From the NCBI GenBank assembly GCA_017822615.1, contig GCA_017822615.1_4530.1: DNA of 64,000 nucleotides; one strand, 5' to 3'. Every line of letters starts with the position of its first letter. Within the stretch, counting starts at the first letter, position 1. Origin of the DNA: a phage. The notes beneath the pieces were generated by a model. The model was not told where the DNA came from and ran no database searches. It worked only from the letters and a program-made list of their open reading frames with translations. Shown here in pieces: positions 41,731 to 64,000 of the stretch. The translations under genes were made by a program, and so were the position numbers.

Positions 41731-41768
41731 ATAAAAGAAAAGGGAACCTTTGCGGGTTCCCTTTTTAT
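41731..41768. terminator. bidirectional terminator at convergent junction
   Basis: GGGAACC-tttgcg-GGTTCCC flanked by A-run upstream and TTTTTATT downstream; between stop of ssb (+) and stop of 41768..44443 (-). Confidence 0.65.
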
Positions 41769-44443
41769 TAGTCGTAATATTTCAAACCTGTAATGAACTT
41801 CGATCCCCAATCCGCACTTGCGGCGGTGAACGTCAACATCCAAGTTGTAGCTGTACCAGTGAAGACCTCTCGTTGCACAGTACCATCAGTGTGGTAAATG
41901 TCCACGCCAGTATGTCCATTCTTAGGAATAGTGAAGGTAACAGCACTGGTAGTGTCTCGTGCATAAGAACAAACAAATGGTGTCCCAGCCCAAACTGGAT
42001 TTGTCATATCACCCATCTCAAGCTGTGGAACCCAAGCAATAAGACCTGCCGTACCATCTCCTGCGAAAGTGTCTGATCCACTTGCATTCAAAGCTATAAT
42101 CTCATAGGTTATAGATGCTTGTTTGGCAACTGTCACTTTGTGTAGAATTACACGATACCAACCATTCCCCATATCGATTATGTTTGCATCTGCACCTGTA
42201 AATGTTCCAGCTACAAGATCATAAGTCCCTTCGTTAATCTCATCTCCTGAAGTCAATTTGAGTTTCACTTTAGTGATCCCGTCTGGCTTCAAGAATACGG
42301 ATGCCGCCCAGTGCTTACCTGCTGTAATATCAGAAGCTGTATTCACTGCTGATAAAATATGTTGTCCTGAAGTTGTAGAAGGTGTTAACTTGTAAGTGTT
42401 AGCTGTAGTTCCAACCGGAGAGTTGATTGTTGATGCCGTGACTGTCAAGTTCGTCTTCAACCACGGGGAAGCTGTTGTCAAGTTATTGTTGATAAAGATA
42501 TGTGTACGGTTGGCTGCTACAACACGTCTACCTTGTGGAGTTGTACCAACATATTCTAAAGGTGCTACGGGAGCAGAACTCTCTGTAGGTACAAGGATAT
42601 CTCCAGAAGCCCTGGCATAACGGTTACTCCTGTTGACCTTTACATCCGCCGGAATAGTTTCTTGCGTCAAATCATAATCCATCACAATCACCACAGCATT
42701 CACTGTGAGATAAGAACTATCTTCGGCAGTTACCACACCTTGATAAGTTGCTCTACAACCGATACGACAACCTCCATCAGCAACCGCTGTAATAACGCCT
42801 GTAACGGGGTCAACTGTTGCTACCGTAGGGTCATTAGAGAAATACTCAACAACCATACCAGGTAAGCTTGCTGCTCCTGTTGGCGTTATTTCTGCTACCA
42901 TTGTTTGTGTTGTTCCTACATCCATCGCAGATAAGCTAGGGGTGTAAACACTCAATGTTGAAGCATATCCTCCAGAGGTATCTGATAAAGTTGTTCCTTC
43001 AGCGTTTAAGGCTGTCATACCTGCATCAAAACCACCTTCTGCATGGAAAGTCATTAAACCAGTAGATGATATTGTCATGTTTGCAGGGGCAGAAGAAGTG
43101 TATTTAATATTGAAAAGTTTGCCTCCTTCTGGGCTAACAGAATGTGTCAACTGTTTAGTTCCACCTACAATACAAATTCCTAAAGAATCTGTAGTTAAGC
43201 CTGTTGCCAGAATATCGCCCGTAATCACGGAGCTTGCTATTGGTGTGAATTTATTATAGTTTAGACCACTATTGAACAGATACGAGGCTTTCCCATCTTT
43301 CCAAATACCGGAATAATACATATCTCCATTATAAACGAAAAAGGTTCCTTGATAACCTAATTGGTTAGTAACATCCATATTCAGCGTATGAACGCTTGTG
43401 AGCTTGTTTATATCCCAAGAACCCACTCCTTCAGGTTTAACTGGTTTTCCCACTTGGAGTGGATCTCCGCTCGCAGAATCATACCCCAAACCTAAGTTTG
43501 CAGTGTAGTTCTTACCAATAGCCCACAAGGAATTATTGATCCCAACGAAAAAAGAGTGGCGGCTTGGTGGAAACTTCCATGTTGAGAAACCTGCTGCAAA
43601 GGTATCCAGTTTAGTGTAGGTTGTTTCTGTATTAGATCTAACATATAAGTAGTTTACTGTACCCGTGCCACCGGAGGTATCTCCTACAACTATTGTCTGG
43701 GAAACTGTATTGATGTAATCTTTGACATACACTGTTTCAGTAGTGGATATTGTGGCATTGACAAAAGCTGTTGTTGTGTTATTATTACCTGCTAAACCTT
43801 TACTAGCTCCACAAACACGCAAGGTTCCCACATTGTTGACATAAGAGCATTGGTTGTAACCTGCATCAAAAGCAACTGCTGCGCTTGTTATCTGACGAGG
43901 AGTAGAAACTTCGTTAGTAGTGCTTGCACCTAAACTACCTACTGTGTTTTGACCCGATCCATAAAGAACACCACTATTCATTAACCAGAGAGTATTGTTA
44001 TACCCTCCTTTAACCTCTTTAAGATTGGCTAAAGAAATAGTCCCTGTTATTACAGATGGAAAGCTGGTCCAGGTAGTTACACATGCATCCGTACCACCTG
44101 CTGCTATAGATCCTACCAACCCTGCTGTCAATCCTGAATATTGCCATCCCCCACTGTTAGTTTTAATAACAAAACAACGATCTGCGGTAAACACATCCGC
44201 TACTACAGTAGAAGCTAAGTGGAAATTATTGAATCGTGCACTACGAGTTCCATCTGCAATCTCACCAAAGAGGTTTGCGCCTTGAGTAAACAATCTACCA
44301 TCATTAAGCAAAATTGCTAAACTGCTGTTAGAATTACCAGCGTTATCTGGGTAATCTAAAGTGATTACTTTTTTAACAATACCTGCTGGCAGAGGAACGA
44401 CACCAGTGCTGGTCATAATAGTAAATATTGGAATTGGAAACAT
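41768..44443 (-). CDS. tail fibre-like structural protein
   Basis: 891 aa, G/S/T/N-rich, distal end of structural operon. Confidence 0.45.
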   Translation of the reverse strand: MFPIPIFTIMTSTGVVPLPAGIVKKVITLDYPDNAGNSNSSLAILLNDGRLFTQGANLFGEIADGTRSARFNNFHLASTVVADVFTADRCFVIKTNSGGWQYSGLTAGLVGSIAAGGTDACVTTWTSFPSVITGTISLANLKEVKGGYNNTLWLMNSGVLYGSGQNTVGSLGASTTNEVSTPRQITSAAVAFDAGYNQCSYVNNVGTLRVCGASKGLAGNNNTTTAFVNATISTTETVYVKDYINTVSQTIVVGDTSGGTGTVNYLYVRSNTETTYTKLDTFAAGFSTWKFPPSRHSFFVGINNSLWAIGKNYTANLGLGYDSASGDPLQVGKPVKPEGVGSWDINKLTSVHTLNMDVTNQLGYQGTFFVYNGDMYYSGIWKDGKASYLFNSGLNYNKFTPIASSVITGDILATGLTTDSLGICIVGGTKQLTHSVSPEGGKLFNIKYTSSAPANMTISSTGLMTFHAEGGFDAGMTALNAEGTTLSDTSGGYASTLSVYTPSLSAMDVGTTQTMVAEITPTGAASLPGMVVEYFSNDPTVATVDPVTGVITAVADGGCRIGCRATYQGVVTAEDSSYLTVNAVVIVMDYDLTQETIPADVKVNRSNRYARASGDILVPTESSAPVAPLEYVGTTPQGRRVVAANRTHIFINNNLTTASPWLKTNLTVTASTINSPVGTTANTYKLTPSTTSGQHILSAVNTASDITAGKHWAASVFLKPDGITKVKLKLTSGDEINEGTYDLVAGTFTGADANIIDMGNGWYRVILHKVTVAKQASITYEIIALNASGSDTFAGDGTAGLIAWVPQLEMGDMTNPVWAGTPFVCSYARDTTSAVTFTIPKNGHTGVDIYHTDGTVQREVFTGTATTWMLTFTAASADWGSKFITGLKYYD

Positions 44444-44452
44444 TTAAACCCT

Positions 44453-44481
44453 CCATAAAAAGAAAGCCCCTTTCGGGGCTT
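44453..44481 (-). terminator. hairpin terminator/attenuator between tail fibre genes
   Basis: AAGCCCC-tttc-GGGGCTT with U-run on minus-strand RNA (rc of CCATAAAAAGAA). Confidence 0.5.
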
Positions 44482-44484
44482 CTG

Positions 44485-46509
44485 TTATCGTGTTACAACA
44501 ACCATGTCCACGATATCACCCACACCAGGATACGTTAATTGCAAAATTGTTACTGCGTTAGCAGTAGTTGCTATTTCTGTATCATTTAGTGCTCCATAAG
44601 ACGCATCTAGTGTAACCGTGTGTCCCGTTGTATCTTGAATCAAATAAATCATTGCTGAAAACGCTTTAGGTTTTGTAGAGCCAGTGACACCAGGCCATGC
44701 TCCAACTGTCAGAGCGTCAGTTACTGTAACAAAATACATATTGGAAGTTCCAGAAGGAGTCCAAGATGCTCCAGAGTTGGCAGTAGTTGTTTCAAGTTCC
44801 ATGAAACCTGCTGTAACTCTAGTTGGTGTTATAGCTTCCGTAGGATCTGATCCTGATATTTCGATCCAATTTCCATCAGACCTACCATACGTCAAGCCGT
44901 CTTGAGGGGCTTCTGGTATACTAGGAAGAGTGCCTATAAGCGTCCACGTAGAAGAATCTGTTTTCTTAAACACTGCTCCAGTGGTAGTATTGAAGGCGTA
45001 ATCATTGATAACACCGTCTCCTGCGACTGGATTAGTTGTTGCTACAAACCACTGTGCGCCGTCCTTACCGTTGGTCCCATCAGTACCGTTGGTTCCGTTT
45101 GTTCCAGGATCACCCTTATCTCCTTTATCCCCTTTTTCACCTTTGTCGCCTTTAATACTTCCCATGTCAACAAAAGATGCGGAATTGGTGTCTTGATCGT
45201 AGGTATAGATGTAAAGATTACTAGTGTCTTCAGTTAAGTAAGCATCACCATAGTTATTGTAAACAGGGAGAGCTTCACTGTTCGGAACATGACCTTTAGC
45301 TGTAATTGATGTTCCTCCAAGACTGCCAACATTCATCCATTCCGTAGCATCTTGGACCCAAACATATAAATCATTATTAATTTTATATGCGTCACCTACT
45401 TCTCCAGTCGGAGGAAGTTCAGCTTCGCTGTTCAGAACCCCGATAATCTCTAAGCCTGATCCTGTTGCACCCACTGGTCCTTGTGGACCTAGTTCACCTT
45501 GTGGACCTCGCTCTCCTTGATCACCCTTGTCTCCTTTTGGACCTTTAAGTGAGGCAATAAAATCTACTTCTGTCCCTTCATTACCAGCATCCAGCCAACT
45601 TTGATATGCAGATTTCCCTTCATCTCCATCTGTTCCATCTAGACCGTCTTTTCCTGCCTCGCCTTGTGGACCTTGAGGACCAACAATATTACCCATGTTG
45701 ACCCAAGCTGTCCCATTAGAGACATAAAGATTACCATTGATAGAATAAGCTTGGCTTACGTTTTCAGAGGTAGGTTGTGGTAAGTTACTTGTAGAAGGCA
45801 AATCTCCACGATAATCAAAACCGTTGGCGTTAACACCAGGTGCTCCCTGTGGCCCTGTAGGACCAACATCGCCTTTATCACCTTTTATAGAGGTAAGGAA
45901 ATCATAAACAGATCCTGTATTACCATCTGCCAACCATACCTCGTAAGCTGATTTACCTTCTGGCCCAAGAGAAGAAATAAGTTTCCAAACAGAACCATCC
46001 CAAGCGTAGATTACATCACCTACGATATAACCATCCCCTGCAACGTTACCTGTGGATGGTAGTTCACTAGTACTTGCTAATGATCCTTTAATATTAAGTT
46101 GAGCACCAGTATCCCCTTTCAAAGAGGCAAGCCACTGTGCTTCTGTTCCAACAAAACCATTATCAAGTGCGATCTGATAAGCCGATTTACCAGCTTCAGG
46201 TATTGTTTCCGACAGATCATCAATTTGTTGCTGCATTGCCGTAAACTTGGCATTGATAATTGCTATATCATCAGCGGTCCCAACACTTTGCCATGCAAGG
46301 GAAGAAATACCACCTGTGGTGGCTGGCGTAGAGTTTGCTGGAACCACTTTAGGAAAAGTTCCTTTCCATTGGTAATAATTCCCTTCTGCTGCTAACAGCA
46401 AAACTTCACGGGAATTACGTAATGTAAAACCTGCCTCAAAGCTGCGACGTTTTCGATAAGTAGCTTCTACCAGATCGGCTATCGCACTATTAGGTCTTGT
46501 TAAATTCAT
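44485..46509 (-). CDS. tail fibre protein with collagen-like Gly-X-Y repeats
   Basis: 674 aa; GDKGDVGPTGPQGAPG, GPQGPQGEAGKDGLDGTDG, KGPKGDKGDQGERGPQGELGPQGPVGATG, KGDKGEKGDKGDKGDPGTNGTNGTDG; three repeats of GKSAYQ/E..W...G....DF..S.KG. Confidence 0.6.
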   Translation of the reverse strand: MNLTRPNSAIADLVEATYRKRRSFEAGFTLRNSREVLLLAAEGNYYQWKGTFPKVVPANSTPATTGGISSLAWQSVGTADDIAIINAKFTAMQQQIDDLSETIPEAGKSAYQIALDNGFVGTEAQWLASLKGDTGAQLNIKGSLASTSELPSTGNVAGDGYIVGDVIYAWDGSVWKLISSLGPEGKSAYEVWLADGNTGSVYDFLTSIKGDKGDVGPTGPQGAPGVNANGFDYRGDLPSTSNLPQPTSENVSQAYSINGNLYVSNGTAWVNMGNIVGPQGPQGEAGKDGLDGTDGDEGKSAYQSWLDAGNEGTEVDFIASLKGPKGDKGDQGERGPQGELGPQGPVGATGSGLEIIGVLNSEAELPPTGEVGDAYKINNDLYVWVQDATEWMNVGSLGGTSITAKGHVPNSEALPVYNNYGDAYLTEDTSNLYIYTYDQDTNSASFVDMGSIKGDKGEKGDKGDKGDPGTNGTNGTDGTNGKDGAQWFVATTNPVAGDGVINDYAFNTTTGAVFKKTDSSTWTLIGTLPSIPEAPQDGLTYGRSDGNWIEISGSDPTEAITPTRVTAGFMELETTTANSGASWTPSGTSNMYFVTVTDALTVGAWPGVTGSTKPKAFSAMIYLIQDTTGHTVTLDASYGALNDTEIATTANAVTILQLTYPGVGDIVDMVVVTR

Positions 46510-46571
46510 TTATCTCTCCTATCATTAGACCATTCTATTGGAAGAAGAGGGGGAATCCCCCCTCTATTCCA

Positions 46572-49500
46572 TTAGGTTGTTGGCACATCTACTACTGGCG
46601 TTGGGCGAATAACCGCAGTATTACCTACAGAAACATTACTGGAATCATTAGGTATGGTTTTAATTCTAACTCCAGCACTTGTAGGCGTTACAATTGGATC
46701 TGCAATGTCTATTTTAACTGGGTTAGTCCACGTATCATTATCTTGATAAGGTGCACGAGTAATAACTGTGTCCAAATCTGCTCCACCTACGCCAGCACCA
46801 GGAATACGGATACGTGTCCCTGCTGACAGAGGGTAATGATACAACCAAGAAGCATTTGTTGCTGTCCCGTTAGGAGTCAAGTTCTGTGTCAGGAAGGTAT
46901 CTCCTGCCTGTGTAGCTCGAATACCGAAAGCTGGGATATCTGGAATATATGCCCCACTTGTTGTTACAAGGAAGAACGTATTATCCGCTTTGACTATCAT
47001 ATCACCTTTGTCAAACTCTTTCCCTGTTGGGAAATGCATTCCATCAATGTTTCGACTAGGATTAGGCTCTAAGTAATAAACTTTGCCCGTTGTCCCTACA
47101 ATAGCTCCAATACCACCTGCGATATTGGTATACATATTAGCTTCAACATTACAGTTGACACGATGAATATCCGAGTAACGGCAACGGCTCCACTGTGGAC
47201 GACCAGTAACCATCGTCTTGCCATCTGGGTAACAGTTTACGTTAACCATTTCAAGAACAGATTTTTCTCTACGGAAGAATCCATCATAAAATGTCCCTGG
47301 ACCAGATTCAGGTTGACCAACACAATCGAAGATATTACAGGTGATGTTAGACATTGAAAGCCAAGAAGCTATACCGAACAACTGCAATGCAGCGCAACGA
47401 ATATTTTCAAAGCTAACTCTGTTTTCATAACCTGGCCCAGCGGAAACTCCCGCAAAAACACGCCCAGTTTTGGTGTGAATGTTACGAACAGAATAGTTAA
47501 AGCATGGATTTGAAGGTCTGCCCTGTGCCGGAACTACCGGATTACCCTCTTCGTCCAGAACTGCGTTAGTTCCCCACTCCAAGTAAATCATACGGATATT
47601 ACTTGCAAGTGTGCTACCGTCTGTTTTAGGCTCTCCATAAACACCATCAATCGTAAAGTCTTTACTTCCATACATTACAACTGCGCCAGTTGCCAAACCT
47701 GTCCCAACAGATACGGTTTGATCTGGATCGCCATGAATGTTTTCGATAGAAATATTACGACCAACTTCTACGTGGACAATCTGACGGCAACGTTTTGCAA
47801 AAACGTTACGAATTGTAATGTTCTTACAATATTGATCATCAGGGATTCCGTAACCATATGGTCCTTTACCAGCTACACCGATACCGATACCCCAGTTCGA
47901 CAGAGGAATAGGAGCATTAGTTCCATCGATATTAGACAGGTAAATATTCTCAATCACACAACCATCGTCATAATGTTTATTGATGACGTTCAGTTCTATT
48001 GCATCACCTTGCATGTCCATGAAGGTAAGGTTACGGAAGACACCACGTGTTACTGGTTCCCCTGTTCCTTGTTGAAGGATGCCGTATAACCCATTTTTAA
48101 AAGTACAATTATCAATTTCAAAAGTACCTGATATTGGGTTGCCTTGGAATACCAAGCTACCAACTTGACCCGCGCGAGGAGCACCGTCCCACAAACAATC
48201 GAACATGCGCACAGCACCACCCCAATACATAACACGAGAGTTACGGAAAGTTGTGCCTTCTACTGTAGCATTTTGCACACGATAGTCGCGTTGACCACGG
48301 AACACACCCCCACGCAAAGTGATACCTTGAATATCAAAAGAGCTTGTCGTGAAAGTCATATCGCAACCGTAAGCATCGAGAATCTTGCTTTTCGAAGCTT
48401 TTGCTGCTAACAGTGCCGCTTGGAAAGCTGCTTCTGGTGTGGTATATGCTGTTGTGTTGTTAGCAAATTCTGACAAGTAGACAACATCGAATAAATCGTT
48501 GTATGTTCCACCACGAGGGGTTAACAGTCCTTCTGTATTGGTCAGAACCCATGCATTTGGACCTAATCCACCGCTTGTCTCCAATGTATCGGAGGCCAAA
48601 ATACTTTTTGGTAAACTTCCAGCCCAACGATAACGACCAGCGCCACGTCCAATCGTCTGATTTTTAGCTGTCAGAGTTACATTATTACCAAAGCTTGTAG
48701 GCAAATGAACAAACTGTCCACGCTCAACAGCCAGTGCAGAAAGGTCTACAGATCCTCCAGAATAAGTCATTACTCCAGAAACAGACAAGGATGTTAAAGT
48801 GCCTGTAATGTTAGGAGGTAATGTGTAGGAAGACTGCGCTACCGGATCATACAGAGCTTTAATCCCTGTTAACGATTGACCTGCTGTTGCGTAAGCCACC
48901 TCATCATCTAACAAACCATACTTACGAGCAATAGTTTGCAGAGGGACTTTATCCATGCTTTCTGTTAGTTCTTCCGTTTTTGTTTCTAAACTAACAAGAC
49001 GGTTCTCTAGATTAGGATCTGTATCTGCTGAAGCTACGATTTTGCCAATATAAGCAAAAAGTTTGTTTGGCAGTCCTGTTGCAGGATCGTGTCCCAAAGG
49101 TTCAGATAAGATGATCTTACTATCTTCTATACGGAAAGCTTCCCCCAGAACCTGAATAACACCATTGATCGTAACAATAGCACTATCAAAGATGTAAGGA
49201 GGACTAATTACTGTTTCATAACCAGTTGCACCAGAATATACCCAAGGGGTGACTTCTGTTGCCAATTGTTCTGTCTTCAGTCCCCACAATACCCAGTTGT
49301 TATCTCCTACTGGAGTCCCTTGCATAGGGATTGGGTTAACCAATGTAGCGTTAGGGGCATAGTAATAACCGCTCAATACTCCATTCTGGAAATAACGAAG
49401 TTGGTTAAAAACTGTTTCGTTTGTGCCTTGCGCCCAATCCAATGGGCTTTTAAAGAAAAAGTTGTCAACAAGGGCTTTTCTCAGGGTTGGTATCAACCCT

Positions 49501-49625
49501 GATTCTGTTTCAATACTCTCTGTAGCACTTCCATTAATAACATCATGGAGTTGGTTAGATGAGAAAATAACCAGGTCTACGCCCTGTTCGAGAGACGTTG
49601 CTGGATATGTTGGGAATGTTGCCAT
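46572..49625 (-). CDS. tail fibre/tailspike with beta-helix-like (pectate-lyase-type) central region
   Basis: 1017 aa; repeated short segments such as NITIRNV...ISIENIHG...FTIDGVYG typical of right-handed beta-helix. Confidence 0.5.
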   Translation of the reverse strand: MATFPTYPATSLEQGVDLVIFSSNQLHDVINGSATESIETESGLIPTLRKALVDNFFFKSPLDWAQGTNETVFNQLRYFQNGVLSGYYYAPNATLVNPIPMQGTPVGDNNWVLWGLKTEQLATEVTPWVYSGATGYETVISPPYIFDSAIVTINGVIQVLGEAFRIEDSKIILSEPLGHDPATGLPNKLFAYIGKIVASADTDPNLENRLVSLETKTEELTESMDKVPLQTIARKYGLLDDEVAYATAGQSLTGIKALYDPVAQSSYTLPPNITGTLTSLSVSGVMTYSGGSVDLSALAVERGQFVHLPTSFGNNVTLTAKNQTIGRGAGRYRWAGSLPKSILASDTLETSGGLGPNAWVLTNTEGLLTPRGGTYNDLFDVVYLSEFANNTTAYTTPEAAFQAALLAAKASKSKILDAYGCDMTFTTSSFDIQGITLRGGVFRGQRDYRVQNATVEGTTFRNSRVMYWGGAVRMFDCLWDGAPRAGQVGSLVFQGNPISGTFEIDNCTFKNGLYGILQQGTGEPVTRGVFRNLTFMDMQGDAIELNVINKHYDDGCVIENIYLSNIDGTNAPIPLSNWGIGIGVAGKGPYGYGIPDDQYCKNITIRNVFAKRCRQIVHVEVGRNISIENIHGDPDQTVSVGTGLATGAVVMYGSKDFTIDGVYGEPKTDGSTLASNIRMIYLEWGTNAVLDEEGNPVVPAQGRPSNPCFNYSVRNIHTKTGRVFAGVSAGPGYENRVSFENIRCAALQLFGIASWLSMSNITCNIFDCVGQPESGPGTFYDGFFRREKSVLEMVNVNCYPDGKTMVTGRPQWSRCRYSDIHRVNCNVEANMYTNIAGGIGAIVGTTGKVYYLEPNPSRNIDGMHFPTGKEFDKGDMIVKADNTFFLVTTSGAYIPDIPAFGIRATQAGDTFLTQNLTPNGTATNASWLYHYPLSAGTRIRIPGAGVGGADLDTVITRAPYQDNDTWTNPVKIDIADPIVTPTSAGVRIKTIPNDSSNVSVGNTAVIRPTPVVDVPTT

Positions 49626-54148: not shown

Positions 54149-56131
54149 TTAAGATCCTGAAGACTTAACCCATGTAAAGGTGTCTCCACGATAAATAACT
54201 TCGTATCCGAGAGTAGTGTCGAAATACTTTTGCCATGCGTAAGGCTGGCTAGGTCTATTGGCTGTAGTACCGCCTTCGTTTAGCCCGTAACTGAAGCGTC
54301 CGGTGCCGTTTGCGCTAAAGAACTCACCTCGCACGGTATCGATACTCCAAGTATTTAATAGCTTCTTGCAAATCATCTTACCTGTGGCAGTGCTACGCAC
54401 TTCAGTAGTACGCGCCTCCAACATATCAGTAAAGATGAAATTCATCTGATTGCCTGATGTGTTGTAGCAGGTAAATTGCATTTCATCTGTACCATAACCA
54501 GCCTGAATAGTTACGGCAATAGGCCTGGTTGCATTGGTATTACGCACCTCATTACACCAGCGCGAGTTAGTAACTGTACCTGATGCAGTGAACTCCTGGT
54601 ATATCTTAGAGTTCGTGCGAATGCCTGCTGCTGCCGGGTTATGAATCTCAGGGTAAGTAAACTTACTACGGTCATACGTTATGTTGTTGAAAGTATAATT
54701 GCCGACATCTCCCGATATATTGTTTGTAATGGCAATAGGGTGAGTAAGCGTAGTACTACGGTTAATGATGTTTAGGTTATCAATTGTGATACCACCTGCA
54801 GTACCCCCTGCATAGTTATTGTAAATACCAATAGCTACACCATACGGGGAACTGGTATCACCTACCTGGTTACAGTTCAAACTTGTCATATTACGGATAT
54901 GGAACTTACAATCATCTCGCCACTTAACAGTTTGCAGTTCCTGATTCTTACTGTTACGCCCATAAACGGAATCAATAGTAATATTGCCGGACACGCCCCC
55001 GTCACCACGGATTTCTATACAACGTTGGCATCCAATAGATGATACGGACCCTACGGTAACGTTTATAGGTTGTGATACACCAGTAAGTTGGTGTACTGCA
55101 AACAGGAGTGCAGGCCCAGCGTTATTAACACCTCGTACAGAACCTATTACTAAATCAATGATAAATTCAGAAGATACGTCAGGCTCCACGTCAATAGTAG
55201 CCCACGGACCTGCCGAAGCTCCTTGAATACTAACTCCTACACTATCTTCGATATATAAACCACGGCATGAGATAACACTTATACCTTGTCTACGAGAACG
55301 GGTGTATACACCAGTACCGGTAATTGCACCTCCGTACTGTTGGTCGTCGTTAACGAACCAAAGGATACTATCGCCCCAACAATAACTGATGTTTGGTGAA
55401 TCAATCACAAGGTTGCTACTGTTGAAGTTGCGAATACCATAACCCCATTCACCTGTAGTCCCTGTATGTGTTTCAACATCACCAACAATAACAGGGTTAA
55501 TTATTTTTGAGTTATGAGCATAGTAAGCGTCTATGATGACATATCGCCCTGATTCTACTGCATCCATTTTTAAAGACGCACCAGCAGAAAATTCGATGTC
55601 TATATTTTGGCGGGTCATTCTCAGCCCCATAGGATATGTTTCACTCCTGACAGGGTCCAAAGTATCCACGAGAACAATTCTATGCTCTCCTGGCGGAATG
55701 GTTACTTTATTAGGGGTCAATTCATATGCGGTTTTCAGAAGAGGCATGATGTCGTCTCCGCTTTTTACAGCCCCCCAATTTCTTAAATCGTCGATATCAA
55801 ATCCATTAAGTAATCCAACGCACTGCCACGAGTCGTCAGGGGAGGAACCGGCACCTACAGTTATAGTGCCGTATTTGGGTGTGTAATAATAACCGTTTGT
55901 TGTGTTTTTTAGAGCTGATACACCCTCAGTTGCGCTTCCTCCTGATAAGAAAGATCCTTCAGACTTAACTAATTGGAGTGGTTTTAGTGTATTATTAGCC
56001 CAGCTTCCAACCGTGTCAGTAAGAAAGTTGGAAACTGTGCTTTTAACAGTCTTATCAGGTTGGTCTAAAACCAGGTAATCAGAACCATTAACTTTTGATG
56101 TTTCGGGTAAATTAGTAATTGTAGTTGACAT
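54149..56131 (-). CDS. tailspike-like protein with beta-helix signatures
   Basis: 660 aa; IDLVIGSVRGVNN...INVTVGSVSSIG...ITIDSVYGRN repeats. Confidence 0.5.
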   Translation of the reverse strand: MSTTITNLPETSKVNGSDYLVLDQPDKTVKSTVSNFLTDTVGSWANNTLKPLQLVKSEGSFLSGGSATEGVSALKNTTNGYYYTPKYGTITVGAGSSPDDSWQCVGLLNGFDIDDLRNWGAVKSGDDIMPLLKTAYELTPNKVTIPPGEHRIVLVDTLDPVRSETYPMGLRMTRQNIDIEFSAGASLKMDAVESGRYVIIDAYYAHNSKIINPVIVGDVETHTGTTGEWGYGIRNFNSSNLVIDSPNISYCWGDSILWFVNDDQQYGGAITGTGVYTRSRRQGISVISCRGLYIEDSVGVSIQGASAGPWATIDVEPDVSSEFIIDLVIGSVRGVNNAGPALLFAVHQLTGVSQPINVTVGSVSSIGCQRCIEIRGDGGVSGNITIDSVYGRNSKNQELQTVKWRDDCKFHIRNMTSLNCNQVGDTSSPYGVAIGIYNNYAGGTAGGITIDNLNIINRSTTLTHPIAITNNISGDVGNYTFNNITYDRSKFTYPEIHNPAAAGIRTNSKIYQEFTASGTVTNSRWCNEVRNTNATRPIAVTIQAGYGTDEMQFTCYNTSGNQMNFIFTDMLEARTTEVRSTATGKMICKKLLNTWSIDTVRGEFFSANGTGRFSYGLNEGGTTANRPSQPYAWQKYFDTTLGYEVIYRGDTFTWVKSSGS

Positions 56132-56139
56132 TTTTACTC

Positions 56140-58293
56140 CTATATATAAAATTTTTGTGTTGTTACCAAATCTTCTCCAGATTTAGTAGCTAATGTAATT
56201 CCACTTATGGTAGCAATCTCAACATTTGCTTGTTTAAGAGTGATATCTTGCAAATAACAATTCAAAGGCACATTACCCATATAGAAAACTTGGGATTGAG
56301 AATTAACTACCGTGATGGAATCATGCATTATTTGAGGATAGGCCCATATATATTGTGTAAGCCCATTGAACTTATTGGCGTTCAACACTATATTACCTAT
56401 AATCATCTTCCAAAGATATGTGCGGTAGTTTGATTTAGGATCAAAGCCATACAAAGGTGCAAGAGTAGCATCTGGAACAAAACCTGAAAGGTAGTGAATA
56501 TCAGAATATTCAAAACCTAATTTTTCATGTGGTATAGTAATTGCATCAAATGCTTTCATCATCTTACCTTCCAGAAGCCAGTCATAACACTCTGAACAGT
56601 AAAAATCAAAAGCTTCAGGAATGTAGTAATCAGACGGGAAGTTAACTTTCTCCATCAAACCGTTGCCGATAATTGATGGCAAGAACGGAAGCAATGTTAC
56701 CTTGGCTCCTGGGTAAGTTGCTCTAGTATCTGTTGCAAACTTTGTAACTCTTAATCCTAGTTTACGAGACAAAAATGCATAATATTCGTCAAACGGCGTT
56801 CCTGTTTTATAATTATCTATTGTTCCTGCATCTTGTGCAAATAAACCTGTTTCTGTGTTGAATGCCAGTTTGGTAGTGTAATCATATATGCAAGGCATTT
56901 TACTTGCTGTATTATACCACCACCAAGGCTCACCAATTTGAATGACAACTGGAATATTATTAGCTTGCGAAATAGATGCTATTTTATTAATAACATTTTG
57001 CAAATATTCCATACCTTCGTCAATAGTTGGAGACAACACATAACTAGGAGGTTCATACCCTGTTGCTGCAAGAGCATCGTTCCAATCATGCTGGACCCAT
57101 TCTACAGGACAAACTGTGCTCATCAATTCAAAACTTAAAGAGTTCATTATTGTGTAGCCCTTCTCGTTTGCTATAGAATGGAAGCTGTTAAGCCAAGCTT
57201 CTGTAGCCGGATTCAGGAAAACAGATTTATTTAAAGCCCAAGATGTTCCATTCCATGAGAACTCATAATAGTGAGACATTCCGTTATAATGGTTAATCAT
57301 CCCACGATAACCTAGTGCATATGTATTATAAATAACTCTCTCTGGAGTCAGGTTATACATATCATCATAAGATGTGCACATGCGAATATCATGTTCAGGC
57401 TGGACAAGGTTGCTGACTTTCATCATACTGTAACCAGAGGTAGGTTCAAGAAGAGTGAAAGTAAACCAAGCCTCTTGACTGTCAATAGGTACAACCTCTT
57501 CTATTTCTTCATACCTTGCTGTAATCAAAGAGAAGAAAATATTATCTACAGCACTCATATCCAAAGGAATATCATTATTAGGGCCAGAAAAGATATTACC
57601 AAAATCTAACTTGATTGTAGCTGTTTTACCATCTTCTGAAATATCTGAAGCGTAGAATCCTAAACTGACATAATGAACACTTTTATCCAGGAGAGTTACA
57701 GTCAAAGTCGGCACCAAAGGTTCTTCTTTAAAACCTGGCATGTTTTGACTAATTTCCATTTTAAACCAAAGTTTCTCTGAACTTAAATCTGTGTGGGGTA
57801 AATACCCAACACCTTTATGGTCATATTTGTCAACTGTGCTCCAGATAACCCCTGCCAAACCTGCTGTTGTTCTGTTTACAAATCTTGCAGTAAAAGAGTC
57901 TCCATGAGATACAATAGAACAACTTTCCGTTGCTTGAGAATCTATTGTCCAATACATAGGAGAGAACATTTTAACGTCTTTTGTAGTCCAAGTTATTGGA
58001 GTAGTATTTTCTTGGATAGTAGTTATAATACAATTGATGGTTGTTTCAACCATCATGTTATTTTGACTAATCCCTGAAACTTGGAGGGAGAAGTTAAGAT
58101 CTATTGAGTTCTTTGGTCGTTCAAATACTTCAACCACAATGGTAGCAGAATCAGCATCATCAGGGAACACAAGTGTTCCCGATTTTGCAATATAATCTCT
58201 ACCAGCGACTGCTGTTCCATCAACAGTCGTGTAGTTAAATGAACTCGCATTTACTCTCTTGTCTCGCGTGACAGTAAATATAGCTTGTTTCAT
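56140..58293 (-). CDS. large structural/tail-associated protein
   Basis: 717 aa, aromatic-rich, within structural operon. Confidence 0.4.
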   Translation of the reverse strand: MKQAIFTVTRDKRVNASSFNYTTVDGTAVAGRDYIAKSGTLVFPDDADSATIVVEVFERPKNSIDLNFSLQVSGISQNNMMVETTINCIITTIQENTTPITWTTKDVKMFSPMYWTIDSQATESCSIVSHGDSFTARFVNRTTAGLAGVIWSTVDKYDHKGVGYLPHTDLSSEKLWFKMEISQNMPGFKEEPLVPTLTVTLLDKSVHYVSLGFYASDISEDGKTATIKLDFGNIFSGPNNDIPLDMSAVDNIFFSLITARYEEIEEVVPIDSQEAWFTFTLLEPTSGYSMMKVSNLVQPEHDIRMCTSYDDMYNLTPERVIYNTYALGYRGMINHYNGMSHYYEFSWNGTSWALNKSVFLNPATEAWLNSFHSIANEKGYTIMNSLSFELMSTVCPVEWVQHDWNDALAATGYEPPSYVLSPTIDEGMEYLQNVINKIASISQANNIPVVIQIGEPWWWYNTASKMPCIYDYTTKLAFNTETGLFAQDAGTIDNYKTGTPFDEYYAFLSRKLGLRVTKFATDTRATYPGAKVTLLPFLPSIIGNGLMEKVNFPSDYYIPEAFDFYCSECYDWLLEGKMMKAFDAITIPHEKLGFEYSDIHYLSGFVPDATLAPLYGFDPKSNYRTYLWKMIIGNIVLNANKFNGLTQYIWAYPQIMHDSITVVNSQSQVFYMGNVPLNCYLQDITLKQANVEIATISGITLATKSGEDLVTTQKFYI

Positions 58294-58301
58294 TTTACCC
58301 C

Positions 58302-61178
58302 TTACTCGGTAACGTCCACACTAATGTTTGCCATTGTCAAAACAGTAAGTGCAGGAATATTGCTCGAATCCAAAACAGGTAATGCATTTTGGGGATTAAG
58401 TTTTTTGTATAAGGCATACAACCCAAAACCACGTAACAACTCTCCGGCGTGGAAGCCAAAGAAGACTCCGTTATCACTGTCTGGTCTAGGAGCAGCACTC
58501 CAACAACCATTCATAACGTGATTAGGACCAAGAACAATATAATTTTCCTGAATAAGTTCAAAACAGCGATCTGCTACTATTTTAATGTTAGGAATTTCTG
58601 AATCATATCCAGCCATCCCCATTATAGCACATCCCGCCATAAAGAGCGCAGACATGTGACTTGTAAAGTCATCTACAGGCGCAGCCACTTCTCCGTTGGG
58701 ATAAAATATTGTTGGTGTTCTTCCTTCGTTGTTATCTTGGAACCACTTCAGATAATTGATCCAGTTTTTACAAACTGTTAAAAGTTTTGCAGGAACTTCT
58801 GCTCCTCGTTGCTTCAGTTCGTATACTGTATGACACGCACAGAAGAATGCTCGTGCTTCATAACCATCCCAAGCTTTATCGTTCCAATGATACATTGTGA
58901 ACTCATTCTTGTTTCCATATTTATGAGCATCCCAACGATCCCAAACATAAGCTTGTGCCATTGGCCCAGGCATCACAGGGGCAAACTTATTATAAAACCA
59001 CATTTGTGAATCATATAAAAAGTCTATACTGTTGTTCATACGAACCCAGTCAATATCTCTCCCTTTAAAACAATATAAGGATGGGTATTGATAACCTGGG
59101 TAAGGAATACCACGCCAACCATCATACAATGCTGTGTTAGGATCACTAATATTGGAAAATGGAATGATTCCTGGAGTATAATTCAAACTATCAAGTTTGT
59201 AGTCCAGTATCGTACAATCTCCAAGTTTTGCTGTATAAGGCTTTTCAGACGAAACTGTAACCCTGAAGTACATTGTGTAGTCATCGCCAGTGGCTGAAGA
59301 ATACAAAGATGGGATATCGTTAACGCAATAAAAGTCGATTGCCCCTGTCAAACCATTTGCAGGTTCAGAATCCAATGCAATGTTAATCTGATCAACAGTA
59401 GTCAGGTTTATTGACGAAGGTTTTGTCTCTGTGTCATTGTGATTAGGTTGCCAAGTACTTAATTTGAAATCAGCAGGACTTAAAGCTTTAGTAACCCATG
59501 CAGAATTTGTTTTTTCTAACATGGCCCACCATCTCCAACCTGCGGAATCCGTAATAGTGATGTTAAAATCATCTGCGTATGAACGATACGTAATAGATTT
59601 TAAATTGGTTGTTTTAGTTGGTGTTAACCAAAACCCAATAGTAAAACCACCATCTGAATCCATATTAGCAGAAACTATCTGATCACTATTTGTCCCAGCA
59701 ATACCAGTTGCATATTTATATTGTATCACAGTATTGCTTCCCCAGTCAACAATGATTCTAGGTTCAGCAATAATATATACACCACCTCCAGGAGGTTCAG
59801 TGCGCATAAAACTGGATAAAGGTATATCCATCTTAGTCATATTAGCTGCACCAAGAGGTAAGCCACAACGATATGTCACTGTGTCTGTTTCACTCTTAGT
59901 CTTGCTTAATTCTAACTCTGGACGGAAAAGAACACCTTCCCCTGCATCATCTACGCCTTGAAACTCAATACGCAGTTTTGAATTCTGATCCACTCTGAAC
60001 CAAACTGCTTGTTGTTCTAGAGTTGTTTGTGCTGCAACATCTTGGCGAATTACTGTGTATCCTAACTCGTCACGAGAATATTTAGGTATTGCTGTAGATG
60101 GGTATGAGTAATCATACGAGATACCATCTGTAAAAGGAATTATTGCTGTCGTAGATCTACGGAAGAATTTATCAAACATATCGATGTTTGAGTAGTCTTG
60201 ACACAACAATAAAGAAGATTGCCAGCAAAGCCAGTATTTTCTCTCTCCTGTGATTTGATACATCAAGTAGTTTGCATCACACCACCACGTTTCAGCATCG
60301 GAAGCATTATCTTGATAACCTAACTCTACCGGAACGTTTACAGGACGGTTATGCCACATCTCATTACGCTTAAGCAGATATCCACCGTGTTCTACAGGAT
60401 TGCATGTAGCGTAGTTGAATTTATAGTCCCCGTTCACAGAAGCATTTTTAAGTTGCACTGTTCCATATTCTGCGAAGCTGTGCCCTGTAGATAAAATGTT
60501 ACCGTCCCAATCAACTTTACGTCCTAGACGATCTATAATCCATTCAACGTCCCACTGATCTCCATATTCTTTCCAGTTGGTTGAACCATCTGGGTTAGTT
60601 GCATAAACTGTTGCGTTAACGGAGTTCCAACCAAGATTGCCATTGAAAGCAAACCAAGCTTTATCTAAGTATTCCCCCCAATGCGGTGCACCTTTAGGAA
60701 TAACAGTCCTTCCGTTAATCCAAGTCATCATGCTACCTTTGAACCCGCCGTGCGTAGGATACCCATCATCTGTGAGAGGGTAATGTGCTAAACGTGGTTC
60801 TTTACCATTGATGATCCAGTTGGGACGATATTTAGCTGGAGGATCAGGAATAGGTTGGCCCCCGAAGAAGTGATCTATATAGGCTTGCCAATACTTCTCG
60901 GCAGATTCAAGATATTTTTTATCCCCTGTAGCCAAATATGCATAAGCAAAACCAGTGATAAGCACAGATTGACCTTCGGTAGTAGCGTCACCGTTTGGTT
61001 GCCCTTCCTGCGCTGTCCAGTTAATAAAGTGTCTGTTGTTCGCCAATACGTTTTGTGGGTTGATAATGTAATGCTGAACCGTAGGATCTATGGTAAGCCC
61101 AGTATTTCTTTCCAAAAACTGAACCAACCCTTCAATCAACTGAAACGTGTTGTCAATATTGTGCTTAACTCTTGACAT
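58302..61178 (-). CDS. large tail-associated protein, Trp/Tyr-rich (possible carbohydrate-active domain)
   Basis: 958 aa with many W/Y and acidic residues; no motif assigned. Confidence 0.35.
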   Translation of the reverse strand: MSRVKHNIDNTFQLIEGLVQFLERNTGLTIDPTVQHYIINPQNVLANNRHFINWTAQEGQPNGDATTEGQSVLITGFAYAYLATGDKKYLESAEKYWQAYIDHFFGGQPIPDPPAKYRPNWIINGKEPRLAHYPLTDDGYPTHGGFKGSMMTWINGRTVIPKGAPHWGEYLDKAWFAFNGNLGWNSVNATVYATNPDGSTNWKEYGDQWDVEWIIDRLGRKVDWDGNILSTGHSFAEYGTVQLKNASVNGDYKFNYATCNPVEHGGYLLKRNEMWHNRPVNVPVELGYQDNASDAETWWCDANYLMYQITGERKYWLCWQSSLLLCQDYSNIDMFDKFFRRSTTAIIPFTDGISYDYSYPSTAIPKYSRDELGYTVIRQDVAAQTTLEQQAVWFRVDQNSKLRIEFQGVDDAGEGVLFRPELELSKTKSETDTVTYRCGLPLGAANMTKMDIPLSSFMRTEPPGGGVYIIAEPRIIVDWGSNTVIQYKYATGIAGTNSDQIVSANMDSDGGFTIGFWLTPTKTTNLKSITYRSYADDFNITITDSAGWRWWAMLEKTNSAWVTKALSPADFKLSTWQPNHNDTETKPSSINLTTVDQINIALDSEPANGLTGAIDFYCVNDIPSLYSSATGDDYTMYFRVTVSSEKPYTAKLGDCTILDYKLDSLNYTPGIIPFSNISDPNTALYDGWRGIPYPGYQYPSLYCFKGRDIDWVRMNNSIDFLYDSQMWFYNKFAPVMPGPMAQAYVWDRWDAHKYGNKNEFTMYHWNDKAWDGYEARAFFCACHTVYELKQRGAEVPAKLLTVCKNWINYLKWFQDNNEGRTPTIFYPNGEVAAPVDDFTSHMSALFMAGCAIMGMAGYDSEIPNIKIVADRCFELIQENYIVLGPNHVMNGCWSAAPRPDSDNGVFFGFHAGELLRGFGLYALYKKLNPQNALPVLDSSNIPALTVLTMANISVDVTE

Positions 61179-61651
61179 TAAATAACTCCTGCTAAAACTA
61201 AGCTACCTGTCCAAGTTGCTCCATTATCATAACTGATAAACTCAAAAGTGTCTGTTGCACCTTGACGATAACTCAAAACTGGGGAACGACCAAAACTCCA
61301 TTTTACAGAAGAAGGCCATACGACTTTATTTGCACCACTTCCTTGACGCAAAGCTAAAGTAAAGTTTAAAACTGCATTTGTTGCTACTGGAATATTAGTA
61401 AAACTAATTGTGCACGTTGCAGAAGATAAAGTTGCTGAAAAATATTCTGCCGAACTAATATCTAATGCTAGGGTGCTAGTTACTGTTCCCCGTGCATTCA
61501 GACGGTTTCTAGTTACCCCTGCACCACTCAACAGCACTTTCAAAGAAGTTTTCTTTGTTATTCCAGCCTGATCTGTTACAAAGAAATCTGTATCAGACAC
61601 AGAGGTTGTTTGGGTAAGATCAGAAACTTTGATCGTAGTTAAATCTGCCAT
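61178..61651 (-). CDS. structural protein
   Basis: 157 aa, S/T-rich beta-type composition. Confidence 0.4.
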   Translation of the reverse strand: MADLTTIKVSDLTQTTSVSDTDFFVTDQAGITKKTSLKVLLSGAGVTRNRLNARGTVTSTLALDISSAEYFSATLSSATCTISFTNIPVATNAVLNFTLALRQGSGANKVVWPSSVKWSFGRSPVLSYRQGATDTFEFISYDNGATWTGSLVLAGVI

Positions 61652-62277
61652 TACTCTTCTACTCCTGTCATAGCTGTTATACCGAAATTATTGTTTGTAG
61701 CTAATGCATCACCTTTTTCGTTAACCATGATTCTTTCCACTGCTGACTCTGTAGACCATTCATTCCACCAAGTAGAGTAGGTATCACGTGGCAAACCAAC
61801 AAAGTTGATAAAGCGATAAAGTCTATTCGAATTCTCAACAATACTGTAAGCTTCGCAAGTGATCGCTGCATTGTCTTCACCAGCTTCAGGGTAAATAAAC
61901 TCTTCAGAAGGTTGAGTATTGAATATAGATGTTACTGTATCTGCTCCAACTGTGACCATAACTGTCATTGAGTAATAACGTTGATCCATGTCATACGCAG
62001 ATTTATAACTGTTTATTGTATCAATGTAAACGTTTTTGGCAATCTCTGCTAAAAATATTCTGTCTACAATATCTTTCTTTCTGGCAACACCAATAATCTC
62101 TTGTAAGTAAGGAACACCGAAGTTAGTATTTAAAAACCACTCCCCACGATACGTGTTCAGAGTTATCCCAAGAGTTTGTGCTGCAATTTCTGTTCTGGTT
62201 GTAGTGAGGACCAAATCCCCATCATCCATGATGAGGTCGTTGTTTGGTCCAAGCTTTAAGTCAAAAGGGATTCCCAT
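61651..62277 (-). CDS. baseplate protein (gpW/XkdS-like?)
   Basis: 208 aa; position after spike gene. Confidence 0.35.
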   Translation of the reverse strand: MGIPFDLKLGPNNDLIMDDGDLVLTTTRTEIAAQTLGITLNTYRGEWFLNTNFGVPYLQEIIGVARKKDIVDRIFLAEIAKNVYIDTINSYKSAYDMDQRYYSMTVMVTVGADTVTSIFNTQPSEEFIYPEAGEDNAAITCEAYSIVENSNRLYRFINFVGLPRDTYSTWWNEWSTESAVERIMVNEKGDALATNNNFGITAMTGVEE

Positions 62278-62278
62278 G

Positions 62279-63013
62279 TTAGGCTCCTGTTGGTTTTAAG
62301 GACTCGGCACTTGAGCTACCGCTCTGAATGTTACGAACCGTGTGCGTGTGAGTATGGAATCCGATGCCATTACCATCTGTCATCAAACCGTTCTGATCTA
62401 TTTTAAGACCATTGATATCTGCCACGCCGCCTTTGAAAGTTAAATTACCACCTTTTAGATCCAAAGTCCCTGTGCCATCTGTAATAGTAATACCAGAGGT
62501 AGTAATATCTATTTTCATCCCTTGACTATTCCATATTGAAATATTACCTGTAGGGTCGAAAGAAGCGTACGTGTTTTTGTTGTTAGAAATAACTACCTTT
62601 TCAGAATCTACAGCTTCTGTTGAATCTGTTCCTGTAGCTATTTTGGGAATAAAACAAATAGGGTATAATCCACAAGGCTGCATAAAAGTGGATGATGAAG
62701 AGGTTTCTCCACTAGTTTGCAGTGCATTAGAAGGATCTCTTTCAGAAAATATAACAGTTCCTAAATCGCCAGCTTTAATAGGGAATGAGATTCTTCCTGT
62801 CCCACCACCATTAACCATAAAAGGAACATCTTCAAAAGTAGGGTAATCTATTTCATCTTCGCTAGATCGTGTGTTTTTAACAATAGATTCTAAGGTGACA
62901 GTCTTAGCACCATAATTAACGCCAGTCACACGGACTGGCAGGGCTGTATGGACTTCTGCTAATTGTTCTGTCATTAAGCCACGCATTGCTGTGACAAAAT
63001 TTAATGCATCCAT
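62279..63013 (-). CDS. baseplate central spike-like protein with HTHTHT metal-binding motif
   Basis: 244 aa; C-terminal GIGFHTHTHTV resembles HxH apex motifs of gpV-type spikes. Confidence 0.4.
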   Translation of the reverse strand: MDALNFVTAMRGLMTEQLAEVHTALPVRVTGVNYGAKTVTLESIVKNTRSSEDEIDYPTFEDVPFMVNGGGTGRISFPIKAGDLGTVIFSERDPSNALQTSGETSSSSTFMQPCGLYPICFIPKIATGTDSTEAVDSEKVVISNNKNTYASFDPTGNISIWNSQGMKIDITTSGITITDGTGTLDLKGGNLTFKGGVADINGLKIDQNGLMTDGNGIGFHTHTHTVRNIQSGSSSAESLKPTGA

Positions 63014-64000
63014 TATTTCTCCTTAGTCATTATTTCAGACACGGATACACACTCCACTTCAGTAACCCACTCTTTACCCTCTTTATCACCATTGTGAGAA
63101 ACAGAAACAACTTTAAATGGACCATCATAATCTCGGCTTTTTAACCAGATTGTTTTTTCTGGTAATATTGCACCATTCATTTGACATTTGAATTTAACAC
63201 CATCTGTAGGTTTCTTTGCCTTCTTAGAGGACTTGGTAACTTTTTTAGTAGGTTTTATATCGTTGTGGAATGGTTCTGGACTTCCTATCAGACCAGTTTC
63301 AGGGCTAATATAGGCGCTACGTGCACTAGACATTTGTGAACGAGGCGTGACATAAACAGATCCATCTTGTATTGACACATTGTGATCAATACTTTTACAA
63401 ATATGTTCTAGGTAATGTGAAGTGTTTCCACACATAGCTGTTGCTGAAGATAAGGTTTGATCATTATCTACGTGTATATTACCTTCTGTAGTTCCTAAAT
63501 CCTTTACCAAATCTGTCACAACACGTTTTATTTTAGTTCCTTTTGGATAACTGCGACTTGTTCTTGCTTCTGCAATGTTAATACCGCCATCTAAACAGTG
63601 TAAAGTGGTTTTCCTGTCTACCGAGTCAAAAGTATCACTAACCCACTGGATAGTTCCTTTGAAGATCATAACCAACTCTTCACCTTCGTATCCTACCGCT
63701 AAAGCAACAGCCAAGTTATTTCGGATACCACGGTTTATATAGTTAACAGTATCATCCGAAAGGTTATAAACTACAATCTCTGCTTGGTTAGGATCTTTGT
63801 TATTATCTTTCTTAATACTGAAGGTTATTTGATGGTCTTGCAACAAATACAAATTAGAAGAGGATTTTTCTGTTGTCCCTAACTTGGTATCCAAATCTAC
63901 TGTAGATTTAAATGCCGAGTTCTTAGTTCTCTTCTGTATTGTGTTTGTGGCAGAACCAATTAATAATTTGTATGCCCTGTTTAAATTAGGGGCAGGAGCT
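63013..64000 (-). CDS. structural protein, 5' end beyond window
   Basis: reading frame stays open upstream of the track's TTG start through position 64000; gene is truncated by the window edge. Confidence 0.45.
   Translation of the reverse strand, partial: APAPNLNRAYKLLIGSATNTIQKRTKNSAFKSTVDLDTKLGTTEKSSSNLYLLQDHQITFSIKKDNNKDPNQAEIVVYNLSDDTVNYINRGIRNNLAVALAVGYEGEELVMIFKGTIQWVSDTFDSVDRKTTLHCLDGGINIAEARTSRSYPKGTKIKRVVTDLVKDLGTTEGNIHVDNDQTLSSATAMCGNTSHYLEHICKSIDHNVSIQDGSVYVTPRSQMSSARSAYISPETGLIGSPEPFHNDIKPTKKVTKSSKKAKKPTDGVKFKCQMNGAILPEKTIWLKSRDYDGPFKVVSVSHNGDKEGKEWVTEVECVSVSEIMTKEK

Follow-up and report, generated by a model that had tools for sequence, protein, structure and literature searches.

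A gene of a Phapecoctavirus encodes an orthologue of the phi92 central spike with a predicted iron-binding HxH apex

Introduction

Electron cryomicroscopy (cryoEM) of phage phi92, reported in 2026, has shown that its trimeric central spike consists of OB-fold, beta-helical and apex domains, that a ferric ion in the apex is coordinated by three HxH motifs, in agreement with the crystal structure of 2012, and that the spike is located at the centre of the baseplate and dissociates from the tip on contraction (PMC13450770). In gpV, the spike of phage P2, His-197 and His-199, each present in three copies, cage the iron octahedrally. The HxH motif alone is universally conserved among such spikes and can serve to identify the apex domain, and spikes that lack it carry a separate PAAR protein. 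Deletion of the P2 apex or replacement of its histidine cage leaves infection in the laboratory unchanged, and an unfolded, hence thicker, apex lowers plating only about 2-fold (bioRxiv 10.1101/2023.02.25.529910). Since the apex and cage mutants of P2 still infect, the iron cage is not strictly required for piercing.

The present analysis concerns one gene of the window, which is the whole stretch of 64,000 nucleotides of phage DNA that was analysed. A first-pass annotation had proposed that its product is the central spike with which a contractile system pierces the membrane, and this is borne out by full-length orthology to the phi92 spike at 73% identity. The gene product is almost certainly the central spike in the contractile tail of a Phapecoctavirus, that is, of a phAPEC8-like myophage of Escherichia coli, with a trimeric state, an iron-bearing apex and a piercing role that are predicted from the phi92 and P2 spikes. 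A spike with an HxH apex is already known: near-identical genes have been deposited as baseplate spike, and crystal and cryoEM structures are available for the prototype, which is 73% identical. Nothing specific to the genus was found when the literature was searched for Phapecoctavirus in combination with the central spike.

The Spike Gene and Its Baseplate Neighbours

The spike gene and the elements that flank it are as follows.

62279..63013, minus strand: baseplate central spike gene, orthologue of the phi92 spike by homology; open reading frame of 244 amino acids plus stop
63019..63024, minus strand: Shine-Dalgarno sequence AAGGAG of the spike gene, within the 3'-terminal part of the hub gene, as seen in the sequence itself
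63013..64000, minus strand: baseplate hub gene, orthologue of phi92 gp137, immediately upstream of the spike gene and cut by the end of the window
61651..62277, minus strand: sheath initiator gene, gp25-like, orthologue of phi92 gp139, immediately downstream of the spike gene

In the list of open reading frames, a frame running from ATG to TAA fills positions 62279-63013 of the minus strand and gives a product of 244 amino acids. Its translation includes ...GNGIGFHTHTHTVRNIQSGSSSAESLKPTGA and has the C-terminal end ...DGNGIGFHTHTHTVRNIQSGSSSAESLKPTGA. Inspection of the sequence places the AAGGAG 5 nt before the ATG of the spike gene. The stop codon of the hub gene and this ATG overlap as TAATG, and the gene after the spike gene begins one base past the spike stop codon. 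The hub, spike and sheath initiator genes are co-oriented and tightly packed, and the reading frame is confirmed as a real gene.

The order of hub, spike and sheath initiator matches gp137-gp138-gp139 of phi92. The hub protein matches Phi92_gp137 (PDB code: 21vq_M) with an E-value of 1e-165, the alignment starting from chain residue 45, and also matches the Pfam E217_GP41 hub and phrog_196. The sheath initiator matches Phi92_gp139 (PDB code: 21vq_L) with an E-value of 1e-102, the sheath initiators of PhiTE, Pam3 and Bas63, and phrog_120, a baseplate wedge subunit. The TTG start at 63894 that is listed for the hub reading frame is an artefact; the phi92 hub aligns from residue 45 and the orthologue in phage nepoznato is 1011 nt long.

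At 99% identity the 3-kb region around the spike gene is shared with a dozen E. coli phages, and at 95-99% with about fifty others. In the RefSeq genome of the 99%-identical phage nepoznato (Stephanstirmvirinae, Phapecoctavirus), the orthologue of the spike gene is annotated as 'baseplate spike'; upstream of it lie genes for the tape measure, the tail sheath and the major head component, and downstream of it those for the baseplate wedge and fibres. The spike gene is still labelled as hypothetical protein in several deposited genomes with 99% identity over the region. It can confidently be named a baseplate central spike with an HxH apex that is predicted to bind iron; beyond correct annotation, the finding matters little.

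Domain Organisation and Relationship to the phi92 Spike

The protein is divided into three domains.

62696..62941, minus strand: N-terminal OB-fold domain, residues 25-106 (PF18352), predicted from the phi92 and P2 structures to dock the spike to the hub
62366..62596, minus strand: beta-helical trimerisation domain, residues 140-216 (PF21930)
62282..62365, minus strand: apex domain, residues 217-244, aligned with that of the phi92 spike

PF18352 matches residues 25-106 with an E-value of 8e-11 (42.3 bits against a curated cutoff of 26.1) and also matches all of the 24 aligned homologues. PF21930 is matched over its full profile (positions 1-75 of 75) with an E-value of 8.5e-32 (109.4 bits against a cutoff of 27). 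Both of these Pfam domains were built on the phi92 spike, and both matches pass the curated cutoffs. A phmmer search of the PDB matches the phi92 spike over residues 1-243 with an E-value of 5e-117, both in its crystal structures (PDB codes: 3PQI and 3PQH) and in its cryoEM structure (PDB code: 21VQ).

A BLASTP comparison with the phi92 spike gives 177 identical residues out of 244 (73%) with a single one-residue gap. The two proteins are of nearly the same length (244 and 245 amino acids), and the identity extends from end to end over a common plan of OB fold, beta-helix and apex. The HTHTH sequence lies at an equal distance from the C-terminus in both, both genes have the hub gene upstream and the sheath initiator gene downstream, and both phages belong to the subfamily Stephanstirmvirinae, although the window phage is a Phapecoctavirus and phi92 belongs to another genus. 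The differences comprise about 27% of the residues, mainly on the surface of the beta-helix and in the last 20 residues (TVRNIQSGSSSAESLKPTGA versus PVRGVETGGSTVTSDKPNG), and a one-residue deletion after Asp-179, and none of them is a difference in kind. Weaker sequence matches in the PDB are to the spikes of PhiTE, E217, Pa193 and SN, with E-values of 3e-10 to 8e-6, and these do not extend into the apex, ending at query residues 171-219.

The protein has every testable property of the phi92-type spike family and of the HxH-apex class except a match to PF18946, the 'GpV Apex motif' of Pfam. PF18946 gives no match at E-values up to 10 to the window spike, whether the whole protein or its last 41 residues are searched. 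At the same threshold it matches the apex region in eight of the 24 aligned homologues, and in distant members of the family the match lies exactly over the HxH. The best of these matches, in homologue P0041, has an E-value of 3.9e-06 over residues 218-237 (27.2 bits against a curated cutoff of 20.8) and covers the HTH of that protein at 222-224; P0041 is the only one of four homologues checked individually that passes the cutoff. Because the PF18946 model is short, with 23 positions, and was built on gpV-like sequences, its failure to match the window spike reflects a limit of sensitivity and is not evidence that the apex motif is absent. The window spike on its own does not reach Pfam Phage_base_V either. 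PHROGs v4 gave no family for the spike at E-values up to 0.01, and all five neighbouring proteins match this library strongly; since the Pfam and PDB results are unambiguous, the miss is read as a gap in the library.

Conservation of the Histidine Motif

The motif is divided into two elements.

62342..62350, minus strand: HxH motif His-222-Thr-223-His-224, with both histidines kept in all 42 homologues; predicted histidine cage for Fe, present three times in the trimer, after the phi92 and P2 spikes
62354..62356, minus strand: His-220, the extra first histidine of HTHTHT; a feature of closer relatives, not conserved

The sequence GIGFHTHTHTV covers residues 216-226 of the spike, and HTHTHT covers residues 220-225 (window positions 62339-62356), with 19 residues beyond it. 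The protein has four histidines in total, three of which are within this motif. The first-pass annotation had described the motif as C-terminal. This is right in so far as it lies in the C-terminal tenth of the protein; it does not form the extreme end, and about 20 further residues complete the tip. His-222-Thr-His-224 itself sits 20 residues from the C-terminus.

A search of a collection of 5.8 billion proteins gave 42 homologues of the spike with identities of 45-98%, and conservation of the motif was assessed from an alignment of 24 of them and from a direct scan of all 42. His-222 and His-224 are invariant in every homologue, down to 45% identity, and Thr-223 almost so, being kept in 21 of the 24 aligned sequences. 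The positions that flank the invariant pair, 220, 221 and 225, are variable. Residue 220 is histidine in 23 of the 42 homologues, which are the closer relatives including phi92-like ones, and Asp, Asn or Ala in the other 19; in the alignment it is His, Asp or Asn in 23 sequences and Ala in one. Since His-220 varies, the functional unit is taken to be the HxH of His-222 and His-224 and not the whole HTHTHT, and the triple motif appears from the alignment to be a clade feature rather than a functional unit. The proposal that HTHTHT is the histidine-rich apex is thereby narrowed to the invariant HxH. That constraint acts on HxH only, and not on HxHxH, is the small addition made by the family alignment.

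His-222 and His-224 are predicted to be the HxH that cages iron, as in the phi92 and P2 spikes. An alternative is that the protein is a central spike whose HTHTHT has no metal role and is a chance or low-complexity His-Thr repeat, the tip being held in another way or capped by a PAAR protein. Such a repeat would be compatible with the variability of His-220 and with the infectivity of P2 whose cage has been replaced by a hydrophobic core (bioRxiv 10.1101/2023.02.25.529910), and metal binding by the window spike is predicted from the prototypes. Against it, His-222 and His-224 are kept in 42 of 42 homologues while positions 220, 221 and 225 vary freely. HxHxH arises in 0.04% of 200,000 shuffles of the spike's own residues; HxH alone arises in 4.9% of them, and conservation of the two histidines is a stronger argument against chance than these shuffle statistics. 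Besides that of the spike, only one HxHxH occurs among the 95 stop-to-stop segments of at least 100 amino acids in the window. Furthermore, the phi92 orthologue carries the same HTHTH with iron density in both the crystal structure and the cryoEM map (PMC13450770), and a PAAR cap is absent from the class of spikes that have a C-terminal HxH (bioRxiv 10.1101/2023.02.25.529910). A motif with no metal role is therefore highly improbable.

Predicted Fold

AlphaFold2 was run on the protein as a monomer with the family alignment of 24 sequences. As a prediction of a single chain the model is mediocre, with a mean pLDDT of 66.7 and a pTM of 0.41. It has an N-terminal helix followed by a beta-rich domain with strands at residues 24-90 and a ladder of short beta strands at residues 140-205, where the pLDDT is 75-91. 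The confidence in the apex is low (pLDDT 41-53), and the model is uninformative on the geometry of the cage.

Foldseek comparison of the model with the PDB gave 3PQI as the top match with an E-value of 3e-22. The 24 that follow are without exception central spikes, from phages, pyocins, extracellular contractile injection systems (eCIS) or type VI secretion systems (T6SS), namely those of PhiTE, SN (Orf41), E217, Bas63, Pa193, R2 pyocin, Pam3 and two eCIS, P2 gpV and VgrG. The C-terminal fragment 3PQH is matched with a TM-score of 0.83 normalised to the target. The spike-like fold for which a structure prediction had been proposed as a check was thus found, the opposite of the outcome that had been named as a refutation.

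These matches bear on whether the protein could be a tail fibre or tailspike with an HxH that forms an intermolecular histidine cage keeping trimeric fibres in register: HxH cages do occur in phage tail fibres and tailspikes (bioRxiv 10.1101/2023.02.25.529910) and a large cluster of genes for fibres and tailspikes follows closely downstream of the gene, but this identity is effectively refuted by the 73% full-length identity to a protein placed by cryoEM at the centre of the phi92 baseplate (PMC13450770), by an N-terminal OB fold typical of spikes, by central spikes making up 25 of the 25 top fold matches, and by the position of the gene between those for the hub and the sheath initiator.

Comparison with Other Central Spikes

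The spike of P2, gpV (PDB codes: 3QR7 and 3QR8; Pfam Phage_base_V and Apex), shares with the window spike an OB fold, a beta-helix and an HxH apex. In gpV the beta-helix is intertwined and the conical apex holds iron, and both are predicted for the window spike. The proposed drill-bit mechanism is also common to both, and gpV is recovered as a fold match (3qr8) with an E-value of 4.5e-3. The sequence likeness is near nil, with 9% identity in the fold alignment, and the window spike has the phi92-type pair of Pfam domains instead. The spikes of PhiTE (PDB code: 9CUY), of the Pseudomonas phages E217 (gp43), Pa193 (gp44) and SN (gp41), and of R2 pyocin (PDB code: 4S37) are, like the window spike, short single-chain central spikes of contractile tails, and show 13-24% identity to it in fold alignments.

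T4 gp5 and VgrG of the T6SS occupy the same position at the tip of a contractile tube and have the same role, with an OB fold followed by a trimeric beta-helix, and the window spike gives weak fold matches to VgrG. These are far larger proteins in which lysozyme or effector domains may be present, and their blunt end needs a separate PAAR cone, whereas the window spike has an HxH apex within the same chain of 244 amino acids. An assignment to the type with gp5 or VgrG plus PAAR was rejected on its length of 244 amino acids, the presence of only the two phi92-type domains and the HxH apex of its own.

Proposed Working of the Spike

By analogy with phi92 and P2, the spike would be a needle built from three chains. 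Their N-terminal OB folds would rest on the trimeric hub where the tail tube ends, the central segments would wind around one another as a triple-stranded beta-helix, and the last 28 or so residues of each chain would converge to form a conical apex. There, the six histidines contributed by His-222 and His-224 of the three chains would hold one iron ion in an octahedral cage, and this cage would keep the tip folded, narrow and rigid. On contraction of the sheath, the tube would push the spike, acting as a mechanical drill bit, across the outer membrane, and the spike would then leave the end of the tube, allowing the tape measure protein and the DNA to exit. Why the histidine cage is so conserved although the P2 apex is dispensable in the laboratory is a question for the prototype systems, which this orthologue makes no more testable.

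His-220, which extends the motif to HxHxH in the phi92/phAPEC8 clade, could conceivably point to the three-fold axis, its three copies forming a second site, for an ion or for water, stacked over the iron cage and tuning the stability of the tip. Since residue 220 is His, Asp or Asn in all but one of the aligned homologues, almost all of its variants are possible ligands. The inward orientation is suggested solely by the way side chains alternate in a beta strand, and a second site of this kind is considered unlikely.

Fibre Genes Downstream of the Spike

Further downstream, the window encodes a Baseplate_J-like wedge protein, tail-fibre assembly proteins and tailspike proteins; there are no tRNA genes in the window. 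A gene for a tail fiber protein of 157 amino acids (61178-61651, minus strand; phrog_9017, E = 2e-68) comes right after the sheath initiator gene. The fiber gene overlaps both of its neighbours: its start with the stop of the sheath initiator gene, and its stop with the start of a gene for a tail protein of 958 amino acids.

A protein of 717 amino acids in the fibre cluster (56140-58293, minus strand) has Calx-beta, NCTSP_N and TIM-barrel_NCTSP domains, the TIM-barrel_NCTSP match having an E-value of 3e-79. The latter two are Pfam domains named after 'non-contractile tail sheath protein' and occur here in a contractile-tailed phage. The protein matches the chains Gp64 and 'Non-contractile tail sheath' of PDB entry 9lc0, and its RefSeq orthologue is annotated as hypothetical. 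It may be a TIM-barrel fibre module that binds or degrades glycans and is shared with a siphophage.

A reading frame of 660 amino acids (54149-56131, minus strand), which has no Pfam match, stands at the place of a tail protein of 921 amino acids in nepoznato that is endo-N-acetylneuraminidase-like there. The difference points to a receptor-binding or depolymerase module in the window phage that has been swapped or is of another kind. At 41768-49625 (minus strand), three large tail proteins are encoded in a row. Two of them have the N-terminal adaptor domain of TSP1/Gp66 tailspikes, one of these also having collagen repeats, and the third has RCC1-like beta-propeller repeats and Big_2. Together with the fibres, these three proteins fit the multi-fibre architecture described for phi92 (PMC13450770).
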